Shown: positions 1 through 54,209, counted from the first letter of the whole stretch. The stretch is DNA of 54,209 nucleotides, filler included, from Cladosporium halotolerans (GCF_011745625.1; 2 parts of 2 records of this genome joined end to end with filler, not necessarily neighbours in it), one strand, 5' to 3'. Numbers and translations: made by a program. The notes: a model not told the origin generated them from the sequence alone.

Positions 1-3000
1 CATTGTAGTCGCTGGCGATTTCAATCGACACGATCAGTTGTGGGGAGGAGACGAGGTCCTGCCGAGCCGACAAGGGGAGGCGGACCCTATCATTGACTTT
101 ATGAATAGATGGAGCCTCGAGAGTCTACTGCCTCGGGGCACCAAGACATGGCAGAATGCAACGCGCGCTACCACGATCGACCTCATGTTGGCATCGCACG
201 AGCTGGCGTCGAACATTCTCACGTGCAAGATCCATGATACGGAGCACGGGTCAGATCATCGCGCGATTGAGACGTCTTTCGACGTCGACATCCCAGATCA
301 TGCTACCCAACCGCGGTTATTGTTCAAAAACGCTCCTTGGACAGCGATCCGAGAGCGCATTGCTCAAGCCTTGCAGGATCGGCCAGCGTTTGGTGATGTC
401 CAGAGACAGGCGGATCGCCTGACGCAGGCTGTGTTGGACGGTGTCAACACGCTGACGCCCAAAGCCAAACCTTCCCCACATGCGAAGCGGTGGTGGACAA
501 AGGATCTCACGAAGCTCCGCCATGTCTACGCATACTGGAGGAACAGGGCGCGTGCGCAGAGACGAGGTGGGGAGGCACTCCCGGAGCTGGAGCGACAAGC
601 ACGAGCGGCAGCAAAGGAGTATCACGATGCGATACGCAAGCAACAGAGACTGCACTGGGACGAGTTCCTGGCGGAAGACACCAACATCTGGAAGGCCACC
701 CGCTACCTCAAGCCGGACGACGGCTCCGGGTGGCCGAAAGTCCCACCACTACGGAGGGCGGACAGGTCAGTGACGACGAACAACTCCGAGCAGGCCGAGC
801 AGCTGCTCGCCACCTTTTTCCCGGCCCTACCCGAAACCATAGAGGACGAGGGAGAGCGACCACAAAGACAGCCGGTCTCCATGCCGGCACTGTCTGCGGA
901 AGAGATCGAGTCCTGCCTCATGAAAACCAAACCCTGGAAGGCCGCCGGCGAAGACGGCCTCCCAACTGGAGTGTGGAGACAAATCTGGCCGGTCGTGAGC
1001 GAAAATGTCCGCCATCTGTTTCAGACGTCCCTCGACACGGAAGTGATTCCTCAGCAATGGAGAGTCGCAAAGATCATTCCTCTCAAGAAGCCCAACAAGG
1101 GTGACTACACCCTGGCGAAGGCGTGGAGGCCCATCTCACTTGGGAAGCTACTGGAAGCAGTCGTCGCGGAGAGGATATCGTTCGCGGTCGAGACCTACGG
1201 CCTGCTGCCGGCCAACCACTTTTGCGCTAGGAAGCAGAGGTCTGCGGAGCAGGCAATGTTGCTCCTCCAGGAGCACATTTACACAGCTTGGAGGAACAAG
1301 AAAGTGGTTAGCTTGGTCAGTTTCGATGTGAAAGGGGCGTACAACGGGTCCTACAAAGACAGGCTGCGGCAGCGGCTTCAGGCTAGAGGCATCCCCTCAG
1401 ACCTGGTGAACTGGATCGACGCCTTCTGCTCCAGGCGCACGGCCACGATCGTGGTGAACGGCCAGGCATCCGACGTTAGAGCACTCGAACAACCCGGGCT
1501 GCCGCAAGGCTCCCCCTTGTCTCCGATCCTGTTTCTCTTCTTCAACGCGGACCTTGTGCAGCAACGGATCGACCAAAATGGTGAGGCGGTAGCTTTTGTC
1601 GATGACTACACTGCGTGGGTGGTGGGCAAGACTGTTGCAGAGAACATGGATCGTCTCCAGGCCGTCGTGCGACGAGCAACGGAATGGGAGAGCAGGAGCG
1701 GGGCGTCTTTTGAAGGAGACAAGACCGCTTTCATCCACTTCACGAGGAACAACACGCATCAGCCCGCGGATGAACCAATCAACGTCAAGGGAGAGGAGAT
1801 ACGGCCCACACCCAGTGTCAAGATCCTGGGCCTGGTGATGGACTCACGACTGCGCTACCAAGAACACGCGGCCCGCGCTGCGACGAAGGGGCTACAGGCA
1901 GCCATGGCGCTGAAGCGGCTGCGAGGACTCTCGCCGTCAGTGACGCGCAAGCTGTTCAACGCGACAGTGGCTCCTGTGGTCGACTACTCTTCCTCGGTGT
2001 GGACGCACGCCAGGAGGGCTAGCACAGAGAGAGTGCTCAAGCGAGTGCAGAGGATTGGTGGACAGGCAGTGGTCGGATGCTTCCAAACAGTTGGCACAGC
2101 GGTGGCAGAGGCGGAAGCAAACCTGCCCACGATTGAGGAACGACACAAGCGAAAGGCTCTGAAGTTGTGGATCGACCTCCGCAGCATGCCGGGCACGCAC
2201 CCTCTCGCGCTGATAGCTAGACGTCTGGCGTGCAAAAGGTTCGTGTCACCTATGCAGAGGATCGCAGAGTACAGCCAGGATGCACCTTTAGATGACTTGG
2301 AGGCGACACAACCTTACATCTCTGCTACATGGAACGCGCGACCCGACACAGTCGACGGCACAGACGACGGACTGCAGGCGGCCGCACGAGCTCAAGAGAC
2401 GCATGGTATACGCATCGCCACCAGCGCGTCGGTCAGGAACCAGCTTGTCGGTATCGGTGGCGCGATCGAGAGCATAGATCGGATCAGAAACCACACTGCG
2501 CGACACGAGTACGACAAGACGTTAGGCACCATCGGGCAAAGTGATGCCTACACAGCCGCTCTGGCCTCGATCGAGGCGGGACTTGCTTTTGTTGTCGGCG
2601 CGGTGTACGAGGGGACTTTATCGGCGCGAGTGCACGGCCACACCGTGCGCGTGTTCACCAACAACCGTACTGTCCTAACCACGTTAAGAGTTTCCCCCAA
2701 ACGGACCAGACAATGGATCATCGGTGGGATTCTGAAACATGTAGAATTCTTGAAAGGATTCGCCATCCGCGTAGTATTTGCGTGGGCCCCTGTTAGTTCC
2801 ATCTTCGAGCTCGCACAAAGAGCGAAACAGCTCGCGCAGCGATCCACCGATGAAGGGCGAGTGGCCAGTGACCGACCCAGACTGACCAAGCGGATCGTTC
2901 TAAAAGCTCAACAACGCCTGGCGCAAGCGACTGCGCAGATGCCTACGACATTCGGGGAAGCAGTGCGCAGAATCGACGCTGCGTGGCCTGGCAACCACAC

Positions 3001-3370
3001 GCGGCGCGTGTACGACGAGCTCAGCAAAAGACAGGCGAGTGTCCTCTCGCAGCTCCGCACAGGGATGGCACCACTGAACATGTACTTGCACAACATCAAA
3101 GCAGTGGAAACGAATTTCTGTGAATGTGGCGAGGCAGTCGAGTCGAGAGAACATTTCATCTTTCATTGTGTCAGGTGGACCGAACAACGGCAGATTTTGG
3201 GCATATGGACAGGCGAGGAAGACCTCCCGCGTCTGCTCGGAGGTAGTGTCTCGACAGATATCGACGGTTGGACACCGGACATGGATGCAGTGCGAGCTGT
3301 AATACATTTCACCCTGGCTAACAAACGATTCGAACGAGACACCAGCACGCGAGGGCGAACGACGATGTAG
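1..3370 (+). CDS. LINE ORF2 (end of APE endonuclease, RT, RNase H-like domain, C-terminal CCHC); 5'-partial
   Basis: Motifs GDFN, TIDL, HGSDH, DVKGAY, GLPQGSPLSP, FVDD and CECG...HFIFHC. A small in-frame deletion is likely at AWRPISLGK. Confidence 0.9.
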   Translation, partial: IVVAGDFNRHDQLWGGDEVLPSRQGEADPIIDFMNRWSLESLLPRGTKTWQNATRATTIDLMLASHELASNILTCKIHDTEHGSDHRAIETSFDVDIPDHATQPRLLFKNAPWTAIRERIAQALQDRPAFGDVQRQADRLTQAVLDGVNTLTPKAKPSPHAKRWWTKDLTKLRHVYAYWRNRARAQRRGGEALPELERQARAAAKEYHDAIRKQQRLHWDEFLAEDTNIWKATRYLKPDDGSGWPKVPPLRRADRSVTTNNSEQAEQLLATFFPALPETIEDEGERPQRQPVSMPALSAEEIESCLMKTKPWKAAGEDGLPTGVWRQIWPVVSENVRHLFQTSLDTEVIPQQWRVAKIIPLKKPNKGDYTLAKAWRPISLGKLLEAVVAERISFAVETYGLLPANHFCARKQRSAEQAMLLLQEHIYTAWRNKKVVSLVSFDVKGAYNGSYKDRLRQRLQARGIPSDLVNWIDAFCSRRTATIVVNGQASDVRALEQPGLPQGSPLSPILFLFFNADLVQQRIDQNGEAVAFVDDYTAWVVGKTVAENMDRLQAVVRRATEWESRSGASFEGDKTAFIHFTRNNTHQPADEPINVKGEEIRPTPSVKILGLVMDSRLRYQEHAARAATKGLQAAMALKRLRGLSPSVTRKLFNATVAPVVDYSSSVWTHARRASTERVLKRVQRIGGQAVVGCFQTVGTAVAEAEANLPTIEERHKRKALKLWIDLRSMPGTHPLALIARRLACKRFVSPMQRIAEYSQDAPLDDLEATQPYISATWNARPDTVDGTDDGLQAAARAQETHGIRIATSASVRNQLVGIGGAIESIDRIRNHTARHEYDKTLGTIGQSDAYTAALASIEAGLAFVVGAVYEGTLSARVHGHTVRVFTNNRTVLTTLRVSPKRTRQWIIGGILKHVEFLKGFAIRVVFAWAPVSSIFELAQRAKQLAQRSTDEGRVASDRPRLTKRIVLKAQQRLAQATAQMPTTFGEAVRRIDAAWPGNHTRRVYDELSKRQASVLSQLRTGMAPLNMYLHNIKAVETNFCECGEAVESREHFIFHCVRWTEQRQILGIWTGEEDLPRLLGGSVSTDIDGWTPDMDAVRAVIHFTLANKRFERDTSTRGRTTM

Positions 3371-3710
3371 AAGACTGTCAGCGACGACTCAACAACCCGT
3401 ACCCTACTAACCATATACTCCGCACACCAATCACGCACCCTCGTGCACACGGCAGGCCCCCGCTTCATCTGCTGAAGATAGGACGATGAACACTTGGAAA
3501 CACAGCTTCAAGAACACCCGCCAACCAGCAATCACGAGCATTCGAGAGTGAGAGGAATATATAACGTCAAGTCGACTTCATGGTGAAGGACAATGAGTTT
3601 GGGAACTGTGTTTGTTTCAACCTCTTCTAGTCAGATGTAAACTTTTGGCCGTAGCTAGTGTGTTGCCCTTTAGGTGCTTAGCGCCGTGCGGAATAAAGTT
3701 TATCATTATC
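1..3710 (+). mobile_element. Tad1-like LINE, family A; 5' part lies outside the window
   Basis: Long pol ORF, then a ~340-nt 3' UTR ending near AATAAAGTTTATCATTATCA. The 3' boundary is approximate. Confidence 0.9.
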
Positions 3711-3827
3711 ACCAGCGAGTACTCTAATTTTTGGGATTGACTCGATTTTCTGAACGTACACGGCTCCTAGAAGTGGTTTTCGGAGTGCTATCACGTCGGT
3801 CGCGTCGCCCAGCGCGGCTGTACCCAA

Positions 3828-5478
3828 ATGGGTACTCCATGGCCCCCAGGGGTTGACTGGCCTCTCGAACTCCGCGAGCACGCTACCGAACTCACCAAGT
3901 ACCTTCGCGATACGCTGAACTGCATCGACCGCTCGCAAGGCCAGACCGTACCGGCCAATCATGTGAGAACTATGATCACGGGGACTCTAACCATGATAAG
4001 CAAGACTCAGGACACCGGATCTCACCACCATTCAGGACGCACTCAATATCATGCAAATCGAAGCGAAAGATAAAGCGAAAGAGACTGCAAACGTCATCGA
4101 GACAGTCAAAGTGAAACTGAGGAACAATGCGGCAGAAATCAAGCGGAGCATCAAAATTGGAGAAGAGACACGGGTAGCAGCGCGAGAAGCGACGGAGAGG
4201 AGCAAGACGGTCGTGGACATGGTCAAGGAGGTGAAAGACAAGGCACCTCTTTCCAGGACACACGGACATTTGAGCTATGCAGCAGTTGCAGCAAATGGAG
4301 CGCTTGCATCGGGAACGCCTAGTGCACACGCGGTCAAGGCCGTTTCCCTCCAGGCCCAACGTGAAGTCATCGTGAGCATCAGAAACCCATTGACCATCTC
4401 AAAACTGCGAGCCATGAACCCACGTAACCTGAAGTCCCACATTGAACGCGCCCTCGAACAGAGTCAGAATGAACACATTGCACATGCGAAGATAATGTCC
4501 TCCAACCAATTGAAGAGCGGGGACTTGAGCCTCAGGACAGCTACTACCTCAGAGACACAGGCCCTCGGACAGTTCGCAGACGACTAGGTCTGCCGAGTCG
4601 GTAATGGAGCAAACATCCGCAACCCGACGTATGGCGTCCTAGTACACGGCATCCGTACCAGCACCATGGAGATGGATAAGTTTGAAGAGATCCGGGAGAA
4701 CATCCTGCAAGACAACCGACCGTTCATACCACAAGCAGAGATCAAATATGTGGGCTGGCTGACCAGAAATGCCCATAGCAAGTCGGCATCGTCGGTAATC
4801 ATTGAGTTCACTCGGCCGGAAGACGCAAACAAGATCATCGACGAAGGCCTGGTCTGGCAGGGCGAGCTGTTCCAGTGCGAGAGGTACGAGCGACCGTGTC
4901 GCTTGAAGCAGTGCCTCAAGTGTCAGAAATATGGCCACATAGGGACCCAGTGCAAGGCAATAACAGCATGTGGCTACTGTGCGCAGGAGCGCAACTCTAG
5001 GGATCGCCCGTCGAAGGCTGACCGGACAGCGACCAGGAAATGCGCAGCCTGCGGTGGCGCACATGAGGCGTGGAACCAGAGCTGCCCGACCCGGAAGGAG
5101 GAACTCGCTCGGACTAAGGCAGCATACGCGACGCGGGTTCAATACCACCCGGTACCTGAGGTTTCCAGGCCAGACACTCAGCCAGGAGCGGCGACAGGAA
5201 CGTTACGGAGGACAAGATCATTGAGGGATCCTGTCAAGCCGTCGGAGACGATGACTGCCAGGGTGACCTCTCCAACAGGGAGAGGACAAAAGCGGACCAA
5301 CACCGGACTGCCGCTTGCAGCGGCATACAAAGAGAACGAGCCACCAAGGATTCTGCGTACTCAGAGACCGCAGAGAGCTGCTAACCCATCGAGGAGGGCG
5401 CTTGAGGCTCTCGAGAACAACACGTTGATCCGTACCAACAGCCAGCAAATGGAGATCGACTCTGACGTGGACTCATGA
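3828..5478 (+). pseudogene. LINE ORF1 (gag-like, zinc knuckles), disrupted
   Basis: Split into pieces 3828-4073, 4051-4587 and 4666-5478 by a frameshift near 4010 and an in-frame TAG at 4585-4587. Knuckles CLKCQKYGHIGTQC and CAACGGAH. Confidence 0.85.
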
Positions 5479-8400
5479 ATCCGACTGGCACATTCAAAAT
5501 ACTACAGTACAACGTTCGGAGATCCCGAGATATAGTCATGGCTACTCTGCTACGAGACCCGAGTGTAATGCAGTACGATATCCTCGCCATCCAAGAGCCG
5601 TGGAGAAACCCGTTCTTGTCAATAACACACCACCCCGCTAAGGATCGCTTTCACCTTTGTTACCCGGGAGCTGTGGAAGATGGACCCGCCGGGGTATGCT
5701 TCTTTGTTAACAAACGATTCGACAACACGAAGTGGCAATTCGAATCACATACGAAAGACGTGTGCTCGCTCCATATCTGGGGCGAGGCAGAAATCCAAAC
5801 ACAGGGGCATCTACACGTTCACAACATCTACAACCCTGGCCTAGCATCAGAAAACCGCGAGAGCGTTTTGCCTCTCCTCTGTACGCTTCTCGAGAGATAC
5901 GAGCGGGACGAGCAAGTGGTACTGGGTGACTTCAATCTCCACCATCGCTCGTGGGGCGGAGATCGAGTGGTTCAGGAAGATCAGGAAGCCGAGGAGCTCA
6001 TTGTCATCATGGAGCGCTTCGGCATGACAAACACATTGCAGCAGGGGGTAGTGACGTACGCGGAACGCAATGCCCGAACGACGATCGATTTATGCTTGAT
6101 CACGCTAGGTCTTCTCGACAGGCTCATCAAGAGCGAAGTGGACGAAGAACTCGACCACGACTCGGATCACTTCCCAATTACTATCATGCTCAATCTGAGT
6201 GCTAAGAAGCTGGACAAAGAGCCGAAGAGAAATTGGAAGAGGCTGGACGAGAAGAAGCTTTGTGGAGCGCTCCGACAGACCCTACCGCAACGACAACGAC
6301 CCAGAACCCAGACTGCGCTTGACCGATACACAACGATGATCGTAGAGGCAATCGATAAGGCAGTCGAAAGGGTACTTCCAAGAACACGACTCTCACCAAA
6401 GGCAAGAGAAGGCTGGAATGATGAGTGCACTCGGGTATTGGCAGAGTCGAAGCGACTGCGCCGAGCACACTGTAAAGATCATACGGAGGGAAGCTGGGAA
6501 GCTTATCGTACGGCGAGGAACAGGAAGGCAAGGACCATGAGGAAAGCTTTGCAGACGGCACACAGGGAGAAGGTCGCAGCAGCGTTGGACTCCCTGGAGG
6601 CTCTCTGGAAGGTAGCCAAGTGGGCCAAAGGGAGAGAGACACTGCCACCAAGCGTGACGCCATCGTTGCGGTGTCCACGGACTGGGAATGAGATCACCGA
6701 AGCAAGCGAAAAGGCAGAAGCATTCAGACGCACCTTCTTCCCTAGACCGCCAGCGGCCGATCTAGGAGATTTGCAAGACGCGCAGTACGCCGGACAGATC
6801 AGTCTACCGCCGAAAACCGAAAAGGTGATATTGGAAGCCATTAAATCAACATCGCCTTTAAAAGCCCCCGGTCCAGATGGCTTACCGAACCGTGTTTTAC
6901 AGGCGACGACGGACATCATAGTGAGCCATCTGACAAGCGTCTTTAACCAGAGCTTGCACATTTGCTACTGCCCGGCGCATTTTCGCTCCTCGACTACTGT
7001 GGTACTGCGAAAGCCAGGAAAAGACAACTACACGATACCGAAGGCATATCGTCCGATAGCTTTGTTGAACACGATTGGCAAGATCATGGACGCTGTCATG
7101 GCGCGCAGATTGAGCTACCTTGTGGAGACGTACCATGTCCTCCCAAACACTCACATCGGCGGCCGAAAACTGAGGTCGACCGAGCATGCACTACACATGA
7201 TTATTGAAAGGATCTACAAGGCTTGGAACTCTGGCCGTGGCAAAGTCGCTAGTCTGCTACTTTTGGATGTCTCTGGCGCGTTCGATAAAGTGTCACATGA
7301 AAGACTACTCCACAATCTGCGCACACGCAGGGTAGACGAAAAGATGGTAATCTGGATCACGAGCTTCCTCGGCAAAAGACAAACAAGGATCACAATGGAC
7401 GAGTTTACATCAGAAGAATACGCGATCAACACCGGGATCCCTCAAGGATCTCCGCTGTCTCCTATCCTCTACATCTTCTATAACGCTGGTCTTCTCGAGA
7501 CCTGCGGTCTGGATCAAGACACCACAGCGACAGGATACATTGACGATGCAGCAATACTGGCGTGTGGCGGTACAACCTCGGAGACCTGTGAGAAGCTTAA
7601 GCTGGCACTAGAGAAGGCGCAGCAGTGGGCGTCTACACATGCATCCAAGTTCGCCCCTGATAAGTTCCAGTTGACCCATTTCACCAGATCACGAACACGC
7701 TTTGACATTGAAAAGGAAATCGAGACCGAGTGGGGAAACATCTTGCCAAGCACAACATGCAAATATCTAGGGGTGGTGATGGACCAGAAACTTAACTGGA
7801 AGTCACACATCGAAGAGATTAAAGGAAAGGTGTCAAAGTCGGTCAATGCCCTTGCTTCTCTGGGCAGCTCCACGTGGGGTGTCCGCATGTCCGACATGCG
7901 GAAGATCTACCGTGGGGTGGTGGTGCCGCAGATGATGTATGCATGCTCAGTATGGTCTAATTCGAGAGGAAATGGCACTCCGTACACAGGAAAGACACTT
8001 CAAATCCTACGAAGCCTACAAGCACGAGGAGCCAGAGCCATCACCGGAGCATTCAGAGCCACGTCAAGCGTTGCACTAGATGTTGAAGCACACCTGCTAC
8101 CTGTGGTACAGCAGATCGAGAGGCATAACACGGACACCCTAGGTCGTATCATGACTTGTCAGACGGCACCAGAGCTGGACCACATATCGAGGAATTCAAC
8201 CAGGGGCAGCGCTCGTATGCCCGTCTACACTAGCCCTCTGCGCAATATCAATCGTCGATACAAAAAGACAATCTCAACAAGCGCCTACGCCGTGGAGACT
8301 ATATCACCTTTCATTGCGCCACCGTGGTGGCGAGGACCTGCCACACACATAGATCAGGAAATAGAGGCACGCTCCATACACGATCGTGAGATCAAGAAAG

Positions 8401-9330
8401 AGGGTATCAGTATCTACACCGACGGCAGCTGTATAGGCGGCCATGTGGGCGCAGCGGCGGTGTGCCCTGAGACAAGACAAATGAGGAATGCATTTATGGG
8501 GACAGACGCAACGTCGACAGTCTATGTAGCGGAGCTAGAGGGCATTAAACTCGCGTTGACAATTGCAGATGTAAAGGTTGATGCTGGCGCGTCTCGAAGA
8601 CGCACCGACATTTTCGTTGACAACCAGGCGGCCATCCGCTCCCTGGCTAGACCAGAGGGTAGGTCGGGAGCGTACATCCTGAAGCAAATCGCCGCCAGGG
8701 TTGAGTCGCTCCAAGAGAAGGGACACATAGTAGTAGTACGATGGATAGCGTCGCATGAGGGTATCGAAGGAAATGAAGCCGCAGACATCGCCGCAAAGGA
8801 AGCCACAGGATGGAGAGAGGGCTCAGCATCAGGATCGAGAGCAGACCCACCACCGAAGCTTTATGCACTTCAAACCACGCTCAATATGTGGAGCCGCAAA
8901 GGGGCAGCCAAAATGTGGGAGACCAGCTGGCAGCAGGAAACGAAAGGCAGAACCACGTTCAGGCACACACCAGCACCTTCGAAAAAGGTGCTGCAACTAC
9001 ACGAAGGCCTGACTAAGAGGCAAAGTGCCATTCTGGTGCAGCTAAGGACCGAGAAGATTGGACTAGGGATTTCCTCTTTCGCCGAAAAGTGCCTGACATT
9101 CTGGATCCAATGTGCACCTGTCAAGAAGGCCGCCAGACAGTGCGGCACATTCTCTTCACGTGCCGCAAGCTCAAGGACATCCGGAGACAGGAACTCGACC
9201 ATCTGCCGGAAGGGAATGGCCTTCGAGCAATTCTCAGCAAGCACAAAGTAGCCATCAAAGCCATCAGGTTCATAGAACGCGCGCAGATCCTAGGGCAGAG
9301 CAGGATCGTGGGAGTAGACGAAGCCGAGCA
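5475..9330 (+). CDS. LINE ORF2 (endonuclease-RT-RNase H) with a frameshift near 9068 before the C-terminal CCHC
   Basis: Motifs LQYN, IQEPW, GDFNLH, DSDH, DVSGAFD, PQGSPLSP, YIDD, YTDGS and EGNEAAD. CTCQ...HILFTC is in another frame (ORF 9089-9436). The end coordinate is approximate. Confidence 0.88.
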
Positions 9331-9791
9331 CTGGGGGAAGACTGTAGGTATGCGGATAAAAGAACATAAGGAAAGACTGTCAACACAGCGAGGAGAATAT
9401 GTGAGCCACCGTCTGCGAACGCTGGCAGGCAACTGAAGACGGTGGCTGCAGAGAGAAAGGGAGAGCGTAGGAGGCAGCTGGTACGGTCAGCACTTCGGTG
9501 TCGGACCGGGCGAAGTGGGACGGCCCGTACGGGACGTGTCGGCTGTCTGCCACGCTCTCCTCCACCGGGCATAGCTGCTGGGGAAAGCGGCTGAAAACGA
9601 GTGGGATATAATCAAATCAAATCAACCAATTATAACAAACGAGTACAAAAAGGGTGGTATTCTTTTGCAAAGAAGGGCTGGTGTTCTTTTGCATAGCGAT
9701 ACTGCCACGTTGCAACAGAATAGTAGTACTTGCAGAATTTTCAAAGTCACGTTGGTAATAGGCGTAAGATCGAAGGCATCGCCGGCACGAG

Positions 9792-23755: not shown

Positions 23756-24417
23756 ATAAAGTATCCTCGCTTCTTCTATACTAACTTCCCTTAGTAGAAA
23801 TCGCGCCTTAACTTATCTCTTTCTAGCCTAAAGCCTCTACTTATACGTAAACGCTAAATTAGTATAAGTAGCCTCTCTAGTAGTCCTCGACTAAGATCTC
23901 TATTATATTAAACCCGGATAGATTAAAGTAAATCGTTATACCTTTCGTATATTAAGATCTATTCCGATCGACGCTTCTTAGATAGGGCTAAGCTTATCTC
24001 TCTTATACCCCTATTAGTATATATACGGAAATTATAATACTAATAGTTACCGTTAAAAGTATTTATAATCCTAAAACGAGTATATAGTAATATATCGTTA
24101 TAGATCCTAAAATTTTAGATACTATTATTATCGATCCGGTTATAGACTTTAATAGAGCTATATAGACTATTAATATAGATACCGCTAATCGTTTAATATC
24201 CCTAGTTAGGATAAAGGGCTCTAGAATACTAAGTATACTAGAAACGTATATTTATATAGACTATATTACCGCGGCCTTATACGTTAAGAGAGTTTTCGAG
24301 CGAGACTAAGGGTTTAAGCTACCTATTTATATCGGTAGCCGAATTCGCGATTTCTAATAATTTTTCGGGCCTAAATATAGTATTCTACCCGCTATATTAA
24401 GTAGTGCTTTTAATTAG
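23756..24417 (+). pseudogene. RIP-inactivated paralogue of PDO2 (PDO3), 3'-truncated
   Basis: Nearly codon-collinear with PDO2 from ATG->ATA at 23756. CCTAAAACGAGTATATAGTAATATATCGTT = PKTGTWQYIV and CTAGAAACGTATATTTATATAGACTATATTACCGCGGCC = LETHVHADHVTAA; homology ends at SSAFD. Confidence 0.9.
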
Positions 24418-24818
24418 CCGAAATCGGTATAATATATCGTTACGTTATTATACTAGGTAAGTAAGGTAGAGGAATAATAATATCGGGAATTCGGAGATTT
24501 AGAGTTATATTAGCTTAGGGTCTACGTCGAACTATTATTACTATTATAACGTTATTAAGCTACCGGTCCGTAATTTCCTACCCCCTATCGTTATCTTATA
24601 TTTACTTTATATATATCTCGTTATATATCTAACTTATCCCACCTACCTTATTTTACTATAGCGCTTCTAAAACCTAGTATTTTATTAGATAACGTTTTAC
24701 CTTTAGTTCTCTAATTATAATACCTTATAGATTAACCTTAAATTATTCGAATATTAGTAAGCCACGATTACTAAACTAGAATCGTATCGGGATAAGACGT
24801 TAAAGCCCCCTTTTAAAA

Positions 24819-25225
24819 ATATTTCGCGCGATATTCTTATAGCTCTATACGAAACCCTATAGAATACTAGCTCTATAGGACGCGATTTACTTACGGGCGA
24901 ACGAACCTTCCTAGCCTAGGCTAGAAGCGGCCTTAATTTTATCGCTTTCGGGATTACTCTAGAGAAGGTTAAAGCCTTTACTACGATTTTAGCTTAAGAA
25001 CTATAATATTTAAAGCCGCTACCGTACTTATCGGTAGTCGTAGTCTCTATATAGTATACGATACGTAAAAATACTTTAGCTCCCTTTCCTTAATACGGTA
25101 AGGTTTATTCTAGCTAAATATAGCTAAAGTAACTCTAATAGCTACGGCCTATATAAGTATTTTTATAGGAATATTACTAGTACTTAATAGTAATAGAGGT
25201 CGACGTAAGGGTAAAGACCTTAGAA
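24819..25225 (+). pseudogene. RIP-inactivated paralogue of the DUF202 gene
   Basis: CGCGATTTACTTACGGGCGAACGAACCTTCCTAGCCTAGGCTAGAAGCGGCCTT aligns to RDLLASERTFLAWARSGL, and GGTCGACGTAAGGGTAAAGAC to GRRKGKD. Confidence 0.9.
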
Positions 25226-25329
25226 TACGGTACTATTAAAGAGCGGTTCGCCTATAGAGAAATCTAGGCCTCGTACTAATTAAGAGAACGGGAGGAAACT
25301 CTCTTTACCTATCTTAATATTATAGGGGA

Positions 25330-26290
25330 GTAACGTCTATATTAAGGCTCTACGTAGTATTTAATATATTCGATACCGTTAGAGGGAGGTTTACTATCTA
25401 AGTCTACTTAAAAGAGGACGGAGAGCTAAGGCCGTTCTACTATACGCGGGCCTAGCTCGCGTATACTCTTAGGGCTTATTCTTTTATACTAGTATACTAT
25501 ACCGTCGACGCGATAAGTCGTAGATTCTAGCCGCGTAGTAAGGAAGACTAGGTTCTCCCTCCGCTTTAGTACCTTATAGTAGGTAATAATTACTATACGT
25601 AGCGTAGGCTTTAACTTAGCGAGTAGATAGCGTATCCGCTACTCTATAGTATATAGGTCTATCTACTTCTTAAGCGTAGCTAGCTCCGTCGTAAATACTT
25701 ATACTATCTAATTCTCGTCTTACTTAGCTACCTTATAAGCTATAGTAGTACTAAGACTACGATTTACTAGGTCCTTAACGACGTCTAGTATACACGTATT
25801 AAAGTCCGCCTAGGAGTACGATTCTAGATAGGAGATAGTATAGTTCTAATACTACGTCTTCTACGGCTCGCTAACGAGGAATATAATACTATATAGTACC
25901 TTCTCGCTCTCTAACTAGTACGCCTCCGGGGCTAGAGCGAATACTAGGTTTAGGGATTAGATAAGATTATAAGCCTCTTTTAGGGTCTTCTCCTTAAAGG
26001 TCTCCGGCTCCTTTAGGCATAGTCGGCTTACGGGCCCTTATTAACTTACTATCGTAGAGCGCGCGCTAGTTACGATACTTACTTAATCGTCTATATCTAC
26101 CTCCCTAAGGTTTAATCCTACCGGGGTATAACCGGTATTATCGCGTCTCTATAGCGTCGCGAGCTACTATTCTAATAGCGTAATCTCTATTTAGTTCTAA
26201 AGCGCTTTATGCCTACGCCGTAGGCGAGCCGCCTACTCCTTATCTACGTTTTCCTCCTCTTCTAGCCTCCGTTCCTCCAAGTCCCCCTGA
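25330..26290 (-). mobile_element. RIP-mutated Ty3/gypsy-like gag fragment
   Basis: Mentally reverting RIP on the minus strand gives LKEPETFxGKTLKEA...LVFALAP...EDPVNR...Q.ENQTVQAFA.EL..LE...HLLAKL.P.LR, typical of fungal retrotransposon Gag. Confidence 0.6.
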
Positions 26291-45440: not shown

Positions 45441-45559
45441 AACTAGCGGGCGCTTAAATGCGGAGCTATGTTGTTGCATCTGCAAGGCGCATGTCTTGCG
45501 GACCACAACAACCGAGGCAGCTTCTCACTGGCTCGCTAAGGAGTACGTGCAGAGGTATT

Positions 45560-46327
45560 GACCCTCAAAGGAATCGACTCCAATTTTGGCTCTGAAAATG
45601 ATGAGTGGTGGTATCGCCATACCGGCTGCGCTGACGCACTCGATCGCGGTTATCCACTCTTGCCGGCCGTGCACAACCTTCCAACTTGACTTGTCTCTTA
45701 TATTGGCTAGTGCTCTAGATGACTGGCTTGTTCCTACCGCAAATCCTGACTCGTCCAAGTTGTACCGTCGTTCGGGAGGGTATTGGTGCTGCAACTGGAG
45801 CTCCGTCAACGTCTCGAACCATGGCTTTACAGCTTCGGCCGTGGCTGCTTTGTGCCTTGCACTATCGATTTGGCGTGTCCATATACCTCGAATCTCAGGG
45901 TGGCGTGCACGGAATCGATGCAGCCACTTGCCGCCTATGGGCCGCGAGTTGAGCGAGGCCTGAGTCGGATTCTTCGAGAGCTGCATCCGGCAACGGCGAA
46001 TCTCTTCGGCCCTCTCAAGAGCCAACGCCGGCGATGCGGGAAAGCCAGTACTTGTCAGCCTGGCCAATCAACGTACAAGTGTCTTCGCTTCGGGGCTCGT
46101 AAGGATCTGAGCATTTTCGTGGCCTTGAGAGCGAGAAGTGTCCGGAGGTGCGATACTGCAATATCGTCCAGGGGACATCTTTTGCTAATGCACACGCGCG
46201 AATGGACTTGTATCTACCTGATTTATATTCCAAGACAGCTTCTTGCATCATAGTTCCAGTGTACGTGTCCATATCGCGCAAAGTCGCGTTCGTCGTTGGT
46301 CTACACGTCGATGAACTGGATCAATCA

Positions 46328-46329
<2 letters not shown>
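45560..46329 (-). mobile_element. Fot1/pogo-type transposon 5' half; its left end is displaced to 51442-51489 by a LINE insertion
   Basis: HTH (SIRACALAKDVP), WLHRFRARHP, YNLDESGF and EWITAIECVSA. The terminus ...CTACGT|TA at 51489 carries duplicated GGCCAAGTTyCCC repeats. Confidence 0.8.
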
Positions 46330-46373
<44 letters not shown>

Positions 46374-49300
46374 ATTCTCATTCAGGCTATGCACGGAGAC
46401 CGTATGAGCCGTCCCTAATCGCTGCCTAACACTACAACGAACAACGCCTTGACACTCATGACCCGAGAGATTAGCCAACACCTCACCCGACCCTCATGTC
46501 CGAAGAACGAGACACCCTGCCAGTCTGGTAAAGAAAACGGATGGAAGCTTTGACGACCTTCAGATCCGGCTTCCAACTTTCGCGTGGGCCGTCCACGAAC
46601 TTGCCCGTCCTAACGTCCTTACGTCCACTCCATCCTCCCAACAAGTACGAATCGTCCCCCCACCTGTCTCCTGCTGCTTCCCGCAGCGCTTTGCGGGCTT
46701 CAGCATACAGATCGCAGCGCAGGGGCACGTGTAGCACTGTCTCATCGCCACGTCCGCACTCGCACGCCGGACTGTCTGCGAGCTTCTTCCTGGACAAACA
46801 GGCGTTCAGGACGCAGCGCCCCGTCGGAGCCTGCACCAAGATGGACGTCCCGTCGGACGACAACGTACCATAGAGAAGGAGCGTACCATAGAGATGGAGC
46901 GTGTGCTTGGCCGACCAGGCTTTGTCCCCCTACACGTGTAGTACTTCACGCAGACATCTTCCTCGTTCGCATGCAGACCCTTGGCCCGCTCTGCATTGAC
47001 CAAGCGCAGCACTCCCGACAGCTCGCACACCCTCTCGGCCGGGGCGGCTGTAGGTTCGCTGCCATTGTCGATAGCTGACCTTGCAGCCTGTTTTGCCTCA
47101 GCGACACCACGAATACCTTTGTCGGCAGGAACGAGAAAGATTGTCACTCGATGACCGACTCCCTCCATTCCGAGGACGGCATCTGCAATCTTGCGTACAA
47201 CTTCCCTCCCGCATCCCACCTTGTGCCCCTTCTCGATGGCTGATATCGCTTCTCTTCTTGTTGATGCCACGTAGACGTGTGCTGTCTTGCGTAGCGTGTC
47301 CCTTGCGTGTTCGGGAGCGTATAGTATGGCAGCCAGATCAGCGCTGACAAGTGAGCACGTCGAAGTCTCAGCGATCGCTTGTTCCTTGACCGTGCCAGTC
47401 GCCATCCGATACTTGATGATCGCTGCCGCACCGACCCGCCCATTCTGGATCTCTGCGGCTGCGTAATACAGGTAGGCACCCCGGAAGCGAAGAGAGCGAC
47501 ACAGCTGTACCGCTTCGTTGGGCTTGATGTACAGCACCGATCGCTCCAGGGTCTGCCATGGCGGCACCACCCACGAAGGTCGCTCGCTGATGCGCAAGCG
47601 CTTCTCCGGCTCCATTTGTGTTTCGTACCTCTCATAGACTGCCCTCGCGCCCTTGGTAGCAGCTGAGTCTGTAGCTTGCACGTGTTTTCTGCCGCGCTTG
47701 GCCCTAACACCCATGCGTTGTAGTCGTCGATGAAGCCAATGGAGCCCCCGCTCTTGTCGATGGGGCCCTGTACAAGGTTCGCGTTGTAATAAACATACAG
47801 TATCGGAGAGAGCGGCGATCCCTGAGAGATGCCTGCGTGCTCGATGTCCTGTACAGAAGACTCGTAGTCACCTACCACGACTGAGGCCTTCCGCCCGTTA
47901 CAGAAGCTTTCGATCCTTGCCACCAGGTCGCCCGGTATCCTTCTTTCACGTAGCCGTTTGGCAAGCACCGAAGGGTGCACGCCGTTGAAGGCGCCTTGCA
48001 CGCCGGACGACACGAGTGATAAAATCTTCTGGACCCGCCAGGCTTCGTGTATCTTCTCAACCAGCAAGTTGAGCGCCTGCTCTGCCGATCTGCTTGGCCG
48101 TCGACCAAAGTGGTTCTCCGGTAGCAGCCTGTACGTCTCGGCCAGGTATGACAGTCTTCTTGCAACGACTGCCTCGAGCCCTTTGCTGATCGTTCCCAAC
48201 AGTGATACGGGCCTATAGGCCTTGGGTTTCGAGTAGTCTGGCTTGTTCGGCTTGCGCAGGACGACAATCTTGGACGTGCGCCACCGTTGCGGTACGTACT
48301 TCAGGTCAAGCGAGGTCTGATACAGTCTCACGACCACATTGGCCAGCACCGGCCACAGTTCCTTCCAGACTCGAACTGTGATCTCGTCCATACCGGGTGC
48401 TTTGTCCGACTTCGACTGCATGATCGCAGCTTCGACCTCACCAAGCGGCAAACTAGGGAGCTTAATCCGCAGAGGCACTTTCTTGCCTGCATACTCATGT
48501 GGCCTTCTGCCCATCCTCGTGGCCAGATTCGGCTTTACCGAAGTGCTATCTCCGTCTACCGGTTTCGGAGGCACAGGGAAGAAAGAGCCAAGAAGGCTGG
48601 CCTTCTCCCTGTCATCCGTCACCTCTGTGTCACCCGCCTTCAACACAGGTATGCCGTGATTTGCACGACCGGCCTTCGTGTATGCGTAGGCCTTCCAGAT
48701 GTTGTCTCGGTCGTCCAAGAACGCCGCCCAGTGCTCCCGTTTGCATTGCTCGATCTTGTCCATGTACAGACGTCGGACTAGCTTGACACTGGTGGCAGCT
48801 TGCGCGACATCTCCACCCCTACGCTTGACCGTGGTCAATTGATTTCGTGCTGCGCTCAACGAAAGCCGCAGCGTCTTCAGCTCGTCGGTCCACCAGCGCT
48901 TGGCGTACGGCGACGGTCGCGCACGTGCGACATGCTTTTCCAGTACCCCGTTGACAGTTGCTTCCAACCTGTCCACGGCCACCTCCAACTCCTCCTCCGA
49001 CGATAATCCTTTTAGATTGGAGTCGTCCGCGATCCTTGTCGATACTTCCTCGCGTATCTTTTTCCAGTCCGCTTTGGCGTACATTCGCCTTCGTCGCTTC
49101 CCCTCGTACTCTGTCGTGTCCAGCACAAAGTGAGCTCGAATGGCTTTGTGATCCGATCCGTGATCAATTGGATGGACTCCACAGTACTCGCACGCCTCGC
49201 TCAAACCACTCGTTGCCAATAAAAGGTTGATCGTAAAACAGGTAGATCCATTGTAGTGCTCCCAGGTCACCGTACCCGACGGAAGCAAGCGAGGTGAGCG

Positions 49301-51428
49301 CATTCTCTTGCATGAAGTCGATGACGGGCTCAGCCTCGTCGGTGCGACCGGGCTCTCCGAACGCCTGAGCGCCACCCCACAGTCCATGGTGGCGGTTGAG
49401 GTCAGCACACAGCAGCATCTCGACTTGAGCTCCCTTTCCGCTGCTTAGGTTTAGGGGCTTTACCTCATCGTATGCATCTTTGATGGTCCGCAGCTTGGAT
49501 CGAAGCTGCTCTTCGTTCGCTGCTTGGCCATCAGTGGATTTCACATCATACGCGGACACAATCAATGCGACTCCGGGCTTTGTAGGAATCGTCACCGCCA
49601 CCACGTCGCTTGAGTGTGCAGCCACTTGCTGCGCCGCGTGCCTTTTGTTCACCCACATTGCAGCCCGGTAGGCATACCGCACTTCTCCTTCGTGTGTCAC
49701 GTCAGGTACAAACAATTGCCAGTTCCGCTCAACTGGAAACGCCGGCTCGCCAGTGTCCAGATCTTCATAAACGTATGGTTCAACTACCGAGAGAGCATCG
49801 AAATCTGCCAGGCTCTCGTCGCAGAACAAACTCCAGTGCGCCGTCTTTCGCTTGCCGATGTTCACGTGTAGTACCTTGAACACCCCTATCATGAGGAATT
49901 GCTGGGTATATTCGACGTGTTCAACGTGCTCGTGACCTGTAGCCCACCGCTGACACTCGAGGCATTAGTCGGGCTTATTCGTGCATTACTATCCAGATCG
50001 ATATCCATGGCAGCTCCGCGTTGGTCCTGCCTCGCCCTAGCCTTCTGTTGCCCAACATGCCGATAGTGCTGTGGGTGCAGCTTGCACGCCCAGTCGAACA
50101 CCGTGTGTGCGTCGCCGCACGCCGGGCACTTAGGGCTGTCTTTGTTCGTGCATTCGGCTCGACGGTGACCTTTCGAGCAGATAGCACATATGATATAGCT
50201 GGTGCACGACTCCTGCTTGTGTCCGTATCTGTTGCAGTGGTAGCACAGGCCGCTGTTGTCCCTGACGATGAACGGTGAGCAGAATGCGTCAGTCGCGCCG
50301 AACATGGCTGTGCCTATCCGCAGCAGATACTCTGCATCGGCTCTGTTCTTCAGCCAGACCACCATCGATCCTACCTTTTTCTTCGCATCGACTTTACTGA
50401 GCCAGGTGGCCTTCATCACCGTGCATTCCGCCGTCTCACAGCTGTTGTCCGCCTTGAAGTCCTTCGCGAAGTCCCTGTTTAGCGTCTTACCGTCGTTCAC
50501 ATCCCGGTCCAGTACACACTGCTTCACGACACTGTCAAACTTCACCGGGTACCACTGCTCACCTTTGACGCGCGCGCCAGCCAGGCTCGACGTCAGCCAG
50601 CGAGTGTGCTGCTTGGCCTTGTTGGCTTGTTCCTTGTCGGCGAACACCACGTCGATCCTGTCGCCCGGGCCAGGCCGCAGAGACTTGATCGTCAGTTTTT
50701 CTGTGACCTTATTGACCTTGAGTCCAGCACGGAGGCCGTCCCTGATGACATTGTAGTTTGTTTTTGATCCCTTGAACCTGCCCATATCTACAGACACTGC
50801 TCTGTCGTCCTGCACCTGTGGCTTTTCCTTGCGCATATGTGAGCTGTCTGCAGACGTAGACCTGGTCTGAGAACTCTGCAAACCCACGGACGTGCCACTG
50901 TTCGCAGTGACCTCGCTGTAGCTACTAGGCCTTGGGCTTTCTTGCAATAGTGCCTTCAATGCTTTGATCTCTTCGCCTTGTGCTTTGATGGTGTCCATCA
51001 TGGCCTGGTTGCTTTCCAGCAGTGCCTTGTTGCGGTCCAATATAGCCTTGTTGCTCTCCAGGAATGCCTTCTGGCTCTCCGCCGTCAGCTTGTCGTTGAC
51101 GCTGTCCTCGGCCTTTCTCTTGCGAGCCGCAGTCGAGGCGCCCTCGAAGCCGGGCGTAGCCTGCTGCGAGACCTCGCCTTCCTCCACCACACTCGACCTG
51201 ATCCTCATCGTCGTCCTTTTCGCTCCTCCCGCCTTCGCCTTCCCTCTCGTCACAACTTGCCACTCCGCACCCCCTCCGCCCTCCGACCCCGCATCAGCGG
51301 CGAAGCCGGCGGCGACAGCGGGCGTCGAGCTTCGAGCTCCAGCACCTTCCCCACATCCACCACCGCCTCCCCCAACATCGATAACATCGTTTTGAGGGTT
51401 AGGGTTTCAGTCATAGTCCCCCTTACAT
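46330..51428 (-). mobile_element. Family C LINE with both ends and a 13-bp TSD; ORF1 ~51414-49889, ORF2 49892-46483 frameshifted and internally deleted
   Basis: TSD TGGATCAATCAGA at 46317-46329 and 51429-51441; (ATC)n tail. Motifs CYHCNRYGH knuckle, HGSDH, QGSPLSP, FIDD and CECG...HVPLRC. Confidence 0.93.
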
Positions 51429-52511
51429 TGGATCAATCAGAAATTCCTGGCCAAGTTTCCCACCCGGCCAAGTTCCCCGCGATCTACGTTAACTGGCAAG
51501 TTCGTAGACTGCGCAGGCAATTAATGTCAAGTATGTGAGTAGCTGCTACGCAGTGAAACTAAGTGCGCTACAGAAGAGCGATGAGCCCACGTGGCAGTCT
51601 CGCAAAAAGTCATCACTCGATGACCCCTACCCATCGACAACGCCCGACATGGTTGACGTGACCGCCCACCACGCCGTCCAGCCGTCGGTAAAACTATGCA
51701 CGACACGACAAAGCCTGCGCGCGCCGCGCGCCAGCAAGCAACGCGCCCCAACCGCCATCGACGCGGCCGCCAACACCGACGACGCCGACTCAACATTATA
51801 GATGAGTAAGAGCTGGAACGAACACGCACAAAGTGCGGAGCAACAAATACACCGGTTCATGCCATAAGATGCGCTACATCGGACAAAACACCCAGCACGA
51901 GCGTCTGACGGCTCAAACAGCTGGAGACAGCAAGACAAGCGCAGCAGACGCCGCGCGTCAGCAGGAAATGAAAACAAGCTTCTTGTACCTCGCACGTGAG
52001 AGGGGAAGAGACGGACAGGAAAAAACAGCCCGGGTAGGTGCCTCAGCTTCGGCAGGCATTTCCCAGGAAGCAAGCAGGATGGACGCCTGCGAAGACCTAC
52101 TACACGCGTCCACGCCGCCGCAGGTGGAAACAGCTCGTGCTTACGAGCTGGCTAAGTGTAGGGGCAATGAGAGATGGCCGCCGTCGCCGCCTGACCGCCG
52201 CGACCGGTCGCGAAGTCCCAGGGGCAGGAGTACTACACGCCGCCCTGTGACTGCTCCATTACGCTACTCCCTTCGTCAAGAATGGAATCTCTCATTAAAG
52301 AAGGCCAAGAGGATACTGGATACGATAACCATCCGACGCGCTCCTGCTCTGCAGTCGCGCGCAGAACCCGCGCTGTAACGTTCTCCTCGCTGCAGCAATG
52401 TGGAAGCCCCAGGAGCGCGACAGGACACCTCTGAGCTTGAACTACTCTGGGAGCACGCCGGATCAACGAGAAAGACGTGACGAGGGGAATTGCAAGCCGT
52501 TTTTAAGGGAA

Positions 52512-53270
52512 CCTGTTAAGAGCTAACTGCGAATAGGGATACAGACCTTGTTAAGCCGCCCGCCGCGCACCCGCCCTACAGAACTGTTAAGCCCTCTTCT
52601 CGCGCCTCTGTTAAGGCCTCCCTGATACGACTATCGTATTCTGGCACGACTACCACTTGCGGACGAGGAAAGGGAGGGGTCACAGTCCAGCGCAGAAAAG
52701 AGATGTCACAGTCCACTGTAGGGAGGGCAGAGCGGAGGAGCACACAGGCCAGCTGTATACGAAGCGCAGGGAGTGTCACAGGCCAGTCCTAGGAAAAGGT
52801 GGACACAAGCTAGGTTAGTAGGGGATAGGTGCATAGGCTGCCCGTCGAGGAGTCTACAGGACCACCCCTGCAAGACACGGTCGGCCTACCGTGGGGAGAC
52901 CCTCGTAGGCAACGCGAAACGGATGTCGCAAGGCATTCGCGGGGCGTAGTGCGTAGCAGCCACTGCTGGCTCCGGGGACCTCACCCCTTCGATGGGCTCT
53001 GACCCTCGGTGTACCTGAGAGCAGGCGGGATCAAACCCCGGCCGGAGAGACTGCTACGTGGCTCGAGAGAACGGATGCGCGTGTCGGTACACAAACAGAC
53101 AGGACGGTTCGCCAGGACGGAACGCTGGTGATGTGTGCTTATGGAGCAAACAACGAGTTACTTGGGCTGCGTGAGGTTTTGCCTGGGCCTCAACTAGTGG
53201 AAGCCTAAACGGAATTGGCTGAAAACCAAGGCAGGGCCCAGTAGACAATGGGGCACGCCGCACCTGCTTA
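52512..53270 (+). other. Highly structured non-coding element of unknown class (putative RNA)
   Basis: Nested complementary segments at 52512-52623 and 52671-52782. GAGA and GCAA tetraloop hairpins; long-range pairs CGTAGCAG/CTGCTACG and AGGTGC/GCACCT. Confidence 0.65.
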
Positions 53271-53295
53271 GATATACAAGAATCTAATAACTGTT

Positions 53296-54209
53296 GCACG
53301 AAGCTGCAAGGTGCGCGAACTGTGGAGGCCAGCATATGGCCACCTCTCGTCGATGCCCCGAAAGGATGCAGCGAGCCCGGAAGCACAAGGAGAAGCCAAG
53401 CGCCGAGATACGAAGCAGTCCCCCCACGACCTTGGAAGACCAGACACCGATCGCAAGGCAGGAAGCCGACGTAGAACACATGGACGAGGATGTAGCTACA
53501 CCTCAGGCGGGAGAAATTGTTGCCACTCAACCGCCAGCAGTGACACTGGGAATGGAAGGGATGCGGTCGAGCTCATCGTGGTCTGACTCAACGTCGAACC
53601 CAGACATTGACAATGAACCGGCAAGTCCGACTCCAAGAGGTAGAGAAAAGACTCCGATGTCAAATGATCATGATAGTGCTGCAACATAACTGCAACGGCA
53701 CATTAGTGCCAATGATGGCGGCTCTCGAGGCCGCCCTCGAGCGAAAAGCCGAAGTGGTGTGCTTGCAAGAGCCCTACGTCGGGAGAAAGAACGTCGTCAG
53801 CCACCCGGGCTTTCAGATTAGATGGCCAGAATGTGAAAAGAGGGAGACGAGAGTTGCGCTTGCCATCAGCAACGATGTGCTGGACCGGTACGTGTTCGAG
53901 GAGAGGACGGACCTGGTCAGTAGCCCATATGTGCAATGCTTGGATGTGTGGGAGACCCAGCGGCGGAGAAAGGTACGCCGCACAAGACTGGTTAACATAT
54001 ACAACCGGGCGAGGATGGCAGGCGGTGGTTACGCAATGGATCGTCTGAACCTGTCGCAGCTCATAGAGGGACGAGTCATCCTCGCCGGGGACTTCAACGC
54101 GCGTAGCCCGGCTTGGGACCCGTGGGTGGCGAGGCGGTGCAACGCCGGCACGACAGAGAAACTCATCGAGGAACACGGACTGATCGTCAACAACAACGAC
54201 CAGCCAACG
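53296..54209 (+). mobile_element. Family D LINE: end of ORF1 (to 53689) and start of ORF2 endonuclease (from 53664, runs off the window)
   Basis: RCANCGGQH...CP; MIVLQHNC, VCLQEPY, NIYN and LAGDFNA. Confidence 0.88.

Follow-up and report, generated by a model that had tools for sequence, protein, structure and literature searches.

We analysed a window of 54,209 bases, filler included, from Cladosporium halotolerans. The window is fungal in its gene content, with a fungal-specific transcription factor, a multicopper oxidase, a molybdopterin oxidoreductase and an arrestin-domain protein, and it also holds several Tad-like LINEs with endonuclease, reverse transcriptase and RNase H domains. Two of these LINEs occupy positions 1-9251 on the + strand. 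The second of them (4588-9251) has an ORF1 and an ORF2 that both look intact, with domains for endonuclease, reverse transcriptase and RNase H, and its 3' UTR, at 9251-9640, looks structured. An AT-rich block at 24001-26000 (GC 0.352, compared to 0.49-0.59 in the rest of the window) could be RIP-degraded repeat DNA. By eye, the - strand ORFs at 45525-46430 resemble the N terminus of a pogo/Fot1-type transposase, and a run of aspartate codons (~46300-46400, + strand) lies beside them.

At the right-hand end of the window, two more Tad-like LINEs flank a discrete repeat, here called X, which contains a long imperfect hairpin, here called the rod (Table 1). The - strand LINE presents its 5' end to the 5' end of X, so that the rod lies between head-to-head LINEs, and the 3' end of X is joined directly to a 5'-truncated LINE, with the break inside ORF1. 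The initial annotation had reported the hairpin and missed the 1.76-kb dispersed repeat of which it is a part. Two tandem CCYGGCCAAGTTYCCC units at 51446-51478, 17 nt apart from start to start, are probably in the 5' UTR of the - strand LINE.

Table 1. Positions of element X, the rod with its modules, and the adjoining LINEs in the window.
Feature	Position	Strand	Description
Tad-like LINE	46483..51533 (3' limit approximate)	-	ORF1, endonuclease, reverse transcriptase
Element X	51534..53297	+	Discrete 1,764-bp non-coding dispersed repeat containing the rod
Whole rod	52490..52810	+ (X apparently + sense; - folds equally well)	Unbranched imperfect hairpin, 99 predicted pairs
Module 1, 5' half	52513..52520	+	CTGTTAAG
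Module 2, 5' half	52548..52555	+	TTGTTAAG; first U in a U.G wobble
Module 3, 5' half	52584..52591	+	CTGTTAAG
Module 4 (innermost), 5' half	52608..52615	+	CTGTTAAG
Apical domain	52616..52678	+	CCUCCCU/AGGGAGG stem closing a small hairpin (52624-52640) and a weakly paired arm
Module 4, 3' half	52679..52689	+	GTCACAGTCCA
Module 3, 3' half	52705..52715	+	GTCACAGTCCA
Module 2, 3' half	52741..52751	+	CACACAGGCCA; CA replaces GT
Module 1, 3' half	52775..52785	+	GTCACAGGCCA
Tad-like LINE, 5'-truncated	53298..54209	+	ORF1 zinc-knuckle tail, then ORF2 endonuclease domain; runs off the window

The rod had been described as four left-arm motifs facing four right-arm motifs in nested order. Pattern counts confirmed this arrangement, and the left-arm coordinates proved to have been given one base too high. 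YTGTTAAG matches five times in the window, and four of these matches are in the rod, at the starts of the 5' half-modules (52513, 52548, 52584 and 52608). Likewise, four of the five matches of CACAGKCCA are in the rod (52681, 52707, 52743 and 52777); the five observed matches compare to 0.97 expected, and none of 100 shuffles reached five. The GT that was said to precede CACAG is present in three of the four copies (those starting at 52679, 52705 and 52775), with CA in the copy at 52741. All the spacer helices that had been proposed were found where they had been placed: CCTCCCT/AGGGAGG, GCGC, CTCTT/AAGAG, CCCTACAG/CTGTAGGG, ATACAG/CTGTAT and CTGCG/CGCAG. Successive modules are spaced by 35, 36 and 24 nt along the left arm and by 34, 36 and 26 nt along the right arm.

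The minimum free energy (MFE) structure predicted by RNAfold for the rod is a single unbranched helix composed of 58 GC, 33 AU and 8 GU pairs. In this structure the motifs face each other in nested order, 1 against 1', 2 against 2', 3 against 3' and 4 against 4'. The individual helices are short and heavily interrupted, with a longest uninterrupted run of 8 bp. The rod was kept when the whole of X was folded, with eight of nine test pairs in the MFE structure and pair probabilities of 0.64-1.00.

Each module consists of a 5-bp helix, N-YUGU/ACAG-N', with UAA(G) opposite (G)UC on the loop side and a CCA bulge opposite 0 to 2 unpaired bases on the base side. The loops are those of the module initially proposed, in which CUGU pairs with ACAG, leaving UAAG opposite GUC and a CCA bulge; the helix is one base pair longer than the four assigned to it. 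The additional pair joins the base before YUGU to the K of CACAGK and reads C-G, C-G, A-U and U.U in modules 1 to 4. The helix of module 2 contains a U.G wobble, which becomes an A.C mismatch on the - strand. The left motif reads CTGT-TAAG and the right motif, as its reverse complement, CTGT-GAC, and this difference is repeated in each of the four modules. This uniform left/right asymmetry rules out a decaying DNA palindrome and is not expected from palindrome decay or arm-to-arm conversion. Moreover, the spacers of different modules have no sequence in common and are therefore not recent duplicates; a small element nested by self-insertion was rejected on the same grounds. We also rejected a coding repeat, as the Val-Lys dipeptides of one frame reflect three of the four left motifs lying in phase, with the right motifs out of phase.

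The complementarity of the spacers was assessed by duplex folding of the mirror spacers against 2000 shuffles of the partner. The cognate duplexes reached -19.2 kcal/mol between modules 1 and 2 (z = -4.3), -35.3 kcal/mol between modules 2 and 3 (z = -3.5) and -14.0 kcal/mol between modules 3 and 4 (z = -2.1). Their sum of -68.5 kcal/mol (z = -5.6) was equalled by none of the 2000 shuffles, which bears out the claim that the spacers all differ and yet pair with their mirror partners. Non-cognate spacer duplexes were mostly weaker, the exception being left spacer 3 with right spacer 2 (-18.1). The complementarity of the outermost flanks was not significant by duplex folding (z = -0.8).

The stability of the whole sequence was less distinctive. 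Folded as RNA, the + strand of a 301-nt segment gave z = -2.30 (2 of 100 shuffles equally stable or better) and the - strand z = -2.69 (0 of 100), and the + strand of a 321-nt segment gave z = -1.88 (6 of 100). The z-score comparison that the initial annotation had put forward as a check thus yields modest values only, from -1.9 to -2.7. Folded as DNA, the 321-nt + strand was no more stable than its shuffles (z = -0.64; 27 of 100 equally stable or better). The RNA stability of the sequence is modest and unremarkable for G+C-rich DNA; the non-random part of the rod is its mirrored modular architecture and not its free energy. The - strand folds slightly better than the + strand (MFE, -118.2 versus -113.5 kcal/mol; G.U pairs, 13 versus 8), so energy alone does not choose the strand.

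X has no coding capacity, as is expected of a non-autonomous non-LTR retroposon: its longest ORF (181 amino acids) had no Pfam match, and tblastn found no remnants of LINE ORF1 or ORF2 in it. Within the 54-kb window there is no second copy of X, and X has no similarity to the other LINEs. A search of the whole window with Rfam 15 gave 0 matches at gathering thresholds, in agreement with the earlier statement that the family of the hairpin was not recognised. At E values up to 10, 51200-53700 returned only flavi_FSE (13.3 bits; threshold, 43) and CLRN1-AS1 (12 bits; threshold, 48). The + strand of X is T-poor (A 460, C 508, G 518 and T 277 in the 1763 bases from 51535 to 53297) and in this respect resembles the sense strands of the LINEs in the window.

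Several identities for X were tried and rejected. A search for a tRNA, 5S or 7SL head in X found none, and a tRNA-derived head was discarded as no tRNA was found. Telomerase RNA was rejected because X is multi-copy and no permutation of a CCCTAA-type hexamer, which we take to be the telomere-template motif, occurs on its + strand; the hits in 51400-53400 are on the - strand only (51405, 51406 and 52818), one of them inside X. X is not a degenerate ORF1 or 5' UTR of the adjacent LINE, since it holds no ORF1 remnant and its copies diverge at 53297. A foldback or MITE DNA transposon was also rejected, because the right motifs, read as reverse complement, do not match the left ones, and because the rod is internal to X. 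In the other data the rod was always found inside X, and the window contains no independent rod copies.

The right end of X, 53297, is common to the window and two contigs, and the left ends, known from a few contigs and translations, are of three kinds. X begins at 51534 in the window, about 36 nt further left in the copies behind proteins P0003 and P0004 and in three contigs, and at ~52700 in the copy behind P0002 and P0014. The 3' end carries no poly(A) tail, and its last 12 bases have no convincing match elsewhere in the window. Both flanks of X in the window are other LINEs, and no target-site duplication is readable. X starts with TG and ends with CA only when base 53298 is included, and no gag-pol interior is present in the window. 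We favour a non-autonomous retroposon as the class of X, known as it is from one window copy, contigs and translations; a solo LTR is possible in view of the TG...CA-like ends. The T-poor + strand, the apparently variable left and constant right ends, the 5'-truncated copy and the wobble in module 2 together favour the + strand as the RNA sense strand of X.

We then turned to public sequencing data. For 52000-53300, 24 runs were listed, and 22 of these rows, from 16 studies, hold some or all of the stretch. They comprise air, dust, surface and urban metagenomes, six coded organisms and leaf litter; in six leaf-litter runs labelled as RNA, 36-40% of the sampled words of 52000-53300 were found. 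Four runs were placed on 51000-54209. One of them (X1) gave 103 contigs, of which 41 were 99% or more identical to the window, 17 were 95-99%, 19 were 90-95% and 26 were under 90%. This spread over identity classes indicates many diverged copies of X. The summed depth of this run rose from 8.8 to 1548 at 51535. Three contigs have a common extension to the left of 51534. Two contigs of run X1, of which one is near-identical to the window and the other diverged, match it as far as 53297 and continue in unlike sequence for 936 and 547 nt. A raw-read DNA run (X21) had one read placed, giving no copy-number estimate.

Contigs of a metatranscriptome (X16) span 52109-53276, including the rod, which is present in three pieces (52539-52695, 52680-52764 and 52751-52830) with 3 to 6 differences each. 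The depth of this run was 0 in bins 53354-53781 of the adjacent LINE. One of its contigs stops at 53276 in adapter-like letters, presumably sequencing adapter, which is a weak hint of a fragment end. As these RNA-library contigs include the rod, X is likely transcribed. Neither the strand nor the ends of a transcript can be read from Logan contigs, and RNA libraries may contain carried-over DNA of a multi-copy repeat. Transcription of the region, on which the initial reading of the rod as RNA depended, is supported to this extent: the rod is in RNA-library contigs, which come without strand information and to which DNA may contribute.

Further copies of X were compared by means of translations of spurious ORFs predicted on them, obtained from JGI, ENA, Logan and NCBI records. 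Among the three proteins matched by the 5'-end frame of X is a hypothetical Cladosporium fusiforme protein (62% identity); the other two have 12 residues in common upstream of the boundary seen in the window and then differ from each other. A + frame across the rod matched P0001, P0002, P0015 and P0016. A - frame matched nine proteins with 82-91% identity to the window, except that P0014 was lower overall and diverges. The copy behind P0002 and P0014 has unrelated sequence upstream of its start.

Single-base changes were deduced by parsimony from the nine - frame translations, in which synonymous changes are invisible. Five multi-base changes, six position-ambiguous changes, a start-codon artefact and the unrelated part of P0014 were left out. 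The initial annotation had looked to compensatory changes in homologues, and these did not appear: 8 of the 38 unique events keep a pair (as wobbles, all through C>U or A>G), 20 break one and 10 fall on unpaired bases, and in the nine translated copies no changes are visible on both sides of one pair. Of the 210 positions covered, 60 belong to the motifs, and 8 of the 38 events fell on these 60, with no depletion of changes in the motifs. As far as translated sequence can report, neither the structure nor the motifs look constrained in these copies. They are probably dead repeat copies drifting neutrally, and selection on an active element is therefore neither confirmed nor refuted by them.

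Three of the copies are without part of the rod, one being the copy that begins at ~52700. P0016 is without 52733-52792, which holds the 3' halves of modules 2 and 1, and P0015 apparently, on a weak alignment, has lost the right arm by a deletion from one short AGGAAAGG-like direct repeat to another. In the window, such repeats bracket the right arm at 52666-52680 and 52790-52804. In the diverged P0015 and P0016, Val-Lys (GTTAAG) is kept at every left motif covered and the flanking residues change; the innermost left motif in P0001 reads Ile-Lys. With so few sites, the retention of Val-Lys is only weakly suggestive of motif conservation.

Searches with the motifs gave no relatives of the rod among the matches listed. 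A metagenome scan for three consecutive CACAGKCCA gave at least 110 loci. Among the matches listed, none resembled X by blastn and none had two or more left and three or more right motifs on one strand; the loci were unrelated iterons and tandem repeats. In prokaryote genomes, the mixed left/right pattern gave five chance matches, none homologous. In viral contigs, one pattern matched three unrelated phage iteron arrays and the other gave 0 matches. Two of the phage contigs carry iteron-like arrays with GTCACAGKCCA that are unrelated to the rod (L001, ~575-645 on the - strand, and L003, 560-660), which shows that motif-only scans are noisy. A full-text literature search for the motif words returned only primer coincidences.

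Together, these results describe the rod as a real, non-random modular hairpin of an unrecognised family in a likely transcribed fungal repeat. Identical loops and helices, stems that differ and are complementary, a flanking pair that covaries and a uniform asymmetry are as expected from selection for a repeated RNA site, and we found no neutral DNA-level process that yields the modular pattern. The view that the rod reflects selection on RNA structure, put forward at the outset, gains from this internal pattern and from the presence of the rod in RNA libraries; the modest z-scores and the translated copies, which show no constraint and in part lack pieces of the rod, weigh against it, and none of the checks put forward at the outset came out cleanly in its favour.

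By design, the retroviral constitutive transport element (CTE) may be the nearest functional analogue of the rod. The CTE is described as a long stem-loop whose two internal loops bind the export receptor directly (PMC7551171, PMC4338338), and AAGACA is given as its conserved loop sequence (PMC7551171). Compared to what these texts describe, the rod would likewise be a cis-acting retroelement RNA, a long stem-loop with repeated, conserved and asymmetric internal loops, its docking role being predicted. It differs in having four loops, all of the same polarity, rather than two (or one), in its fungal host and non-coding, retroposon-like element, and in that protein binding is predicted only. 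Moreover, the AAGACA of the CTE occurs on neither strand of 52490-52810; elsewhere in X it is found on the + strand at 51932 and 52872. Membership of the CTE family was rejected on account of the absent AAGACA and the four loops in one orientation. In the HIV-1 Rev response element (RRE), several sites on one RNA lead to cooperative multivalent assembly (PMC4488727). The rod is similar in offering several candidate sites on one structured RNA; however, the RRE is branched with non-identical sites, whereas the rod is unbranched with four near-identical ones.

SINEs and the U6/L1 chimeric retrocopies are non-autonomous retroposons and LINE/small-RNA chimeras, respectively. Like the former, X is non-coding, dispersed and likely transcribed, and in the few contigs and translations that show ends, its 5' end seems to vary and its 3' end to be fixed; like the latter, it has one copy whose exact 3' end adjoins a 5'-truncated LINE. 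Unlike a SINE, X is far longer at 1.76 kb, and neither a tRNA, 5S or 7SL head nor an A-tail was found. The rod resembles foldback elements and MITEs in that its long inverted repeat forms a hairpin and carries repeated subterminal motifs, but it is internal to X, is no mobile unit itself and folds as DNA no better than shuffles.

Our leading explanation, which we hold tentatively, is that the rod is a multivalent protein-docking platform on the + sense transcript of X, a retroposon-like multi-copy repeat. According to this model, the four modules would each present the same small three-dimensional site, a 5-bp helix between unpaired UAA(G) and CCA, repeated every 24 to 36 nt on a single continuous helix. 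A stiff rod bearing four such identical sites could then dock one sequence- and shape-specific RNA-binding protein. The likeliest partner would be a component of the retrotransposition RNP, e.g., a LINE zinc-knuckle ORF1 protein or the reverse transcriptase, and binding would allow the non-coding X RNA to be packaged and copied in trans. The fusion of the 3' end of X to a LINE may have arisen by a template switch of the reverse transcriptase from LINE RNA to associated X RNA. Template switching onto an associated RNA occurs in U6/L1 chimeras, and if it made the X-LINE junction, X RNA travels with the LINE machinery. Alternatively, the junction could be a nested insertion. A bolder version, which we consider unlikely, would make X a parasite-of-a-parasite RNA and the rod a dedicated high-avidity pad for Tad-like LINE proteins or Mex67-Mtr2. 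The motif would then be a new one, CTE/RRE-like but independently evolved, and the X-LINE junction a template-switch fossil.

The rod could also be a relic at the DNA level, an inverted duplication of a short tandem array in a dead repeat with no RNA function, whose complementarity was kept by arm-to-arm conversion or by recent origin. Such an origin would fit copies that are structurally unconstrained and in which arms have been deleted, the modest RNA z-scores and the occurrence of the rod within a single repeat family. We nevertheless regard it as distinctly unlikely: conversion would erase an asymmetry shared by four modules and random decay would not produce it in parallel, the mutually unrelated spacers are not those of recent duplicates, the DNA fold is no better than shuffles (z = -0.64) and the rod requires eight G.U pairs. 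Another version keeps the RNA and reverses the strand, as an antisense transcript or with X itself in the - sense. The modules would then read UGGMCUGUGAC / CUUAACAR, and their UAA opposite GAC loops, which recall what we take to be the UAA/GAN tertiary motif, could form tertiary contacts of that type instead of a protein site; a literature search for the UAA/GAN motif found no paper. The - strand has the lower MFE (-118.2 versus -113.5 kcal/mol) and the better z-score (-2.69, with 0 of 100 shuffles as good), and the contigs carry no strand information. Read in this direction, however, the U.G pair of the module 2 helix turns into A.C and this module has GUG instead of GAC, and the T-poor + strand, the apparently variable left and constant right ends and the fusion to a + strand LINE all favour the + sense. 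We judge a functional - strand improbable.

Two further roles were considered. In one, the rod is a CTE-like nuclear-export element that recruits Mex67-Mtr2 and takes unspliced retroelement RNA to the cytoplasm. The design, a long stem-loop with repeated receptor-binding internal loops, matches that described for the CTE (PMC7551171, PMC4338338), and a retroposon RNA would presumably have to reach cytoplasmic LINE proteins. We think this role very unlikely, given four same-orientation loops rather than two, no Rfam hit, and neither rod strand bearing the conserved AAGACA loop of the CTE (PMC7551171). In the other, the rod is a Dicer-substrate precursor of small RNAs that silence the repeat family or act like microRNAs, with the bulges setting the cuts. 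A long fold-back transcript of a repeat, with modules evenly spaced at 24 to 36 nt, is consistent with such a precursor; but the helices are short and interrupted (longest run, 8 bp), the spacing has no 21- to 24-nt phase, and dicing does not need conserved loop sequences. We give this role little credence.

If the modules of the proposed docking platform are true protein sites, the rod would be the first docking element built of reiterated internal loops to be described in a fungal retroelement. It would also supply a compact, sequence-defined RNA-protein recognition unit, in which a 5-bp helix is combined with a UAA loop and a CCA bulge, and a handle on how non-coding RNAs capture LINE or export machinery in fungi. 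Should the rod be no more than a relic, it is ordinary repeat DNA. The host is a ubiquitous airborne mould and X is abundant in air, dust and litter data, so its RNA should be readily obtained and probed. The summed depth of run X1 peaks in the 3' third of X, with 6145 in bin 52819-52925, and 52830-53270 looks rich in local hairpins by eye, such as 52952-52964 with 53046-53058.
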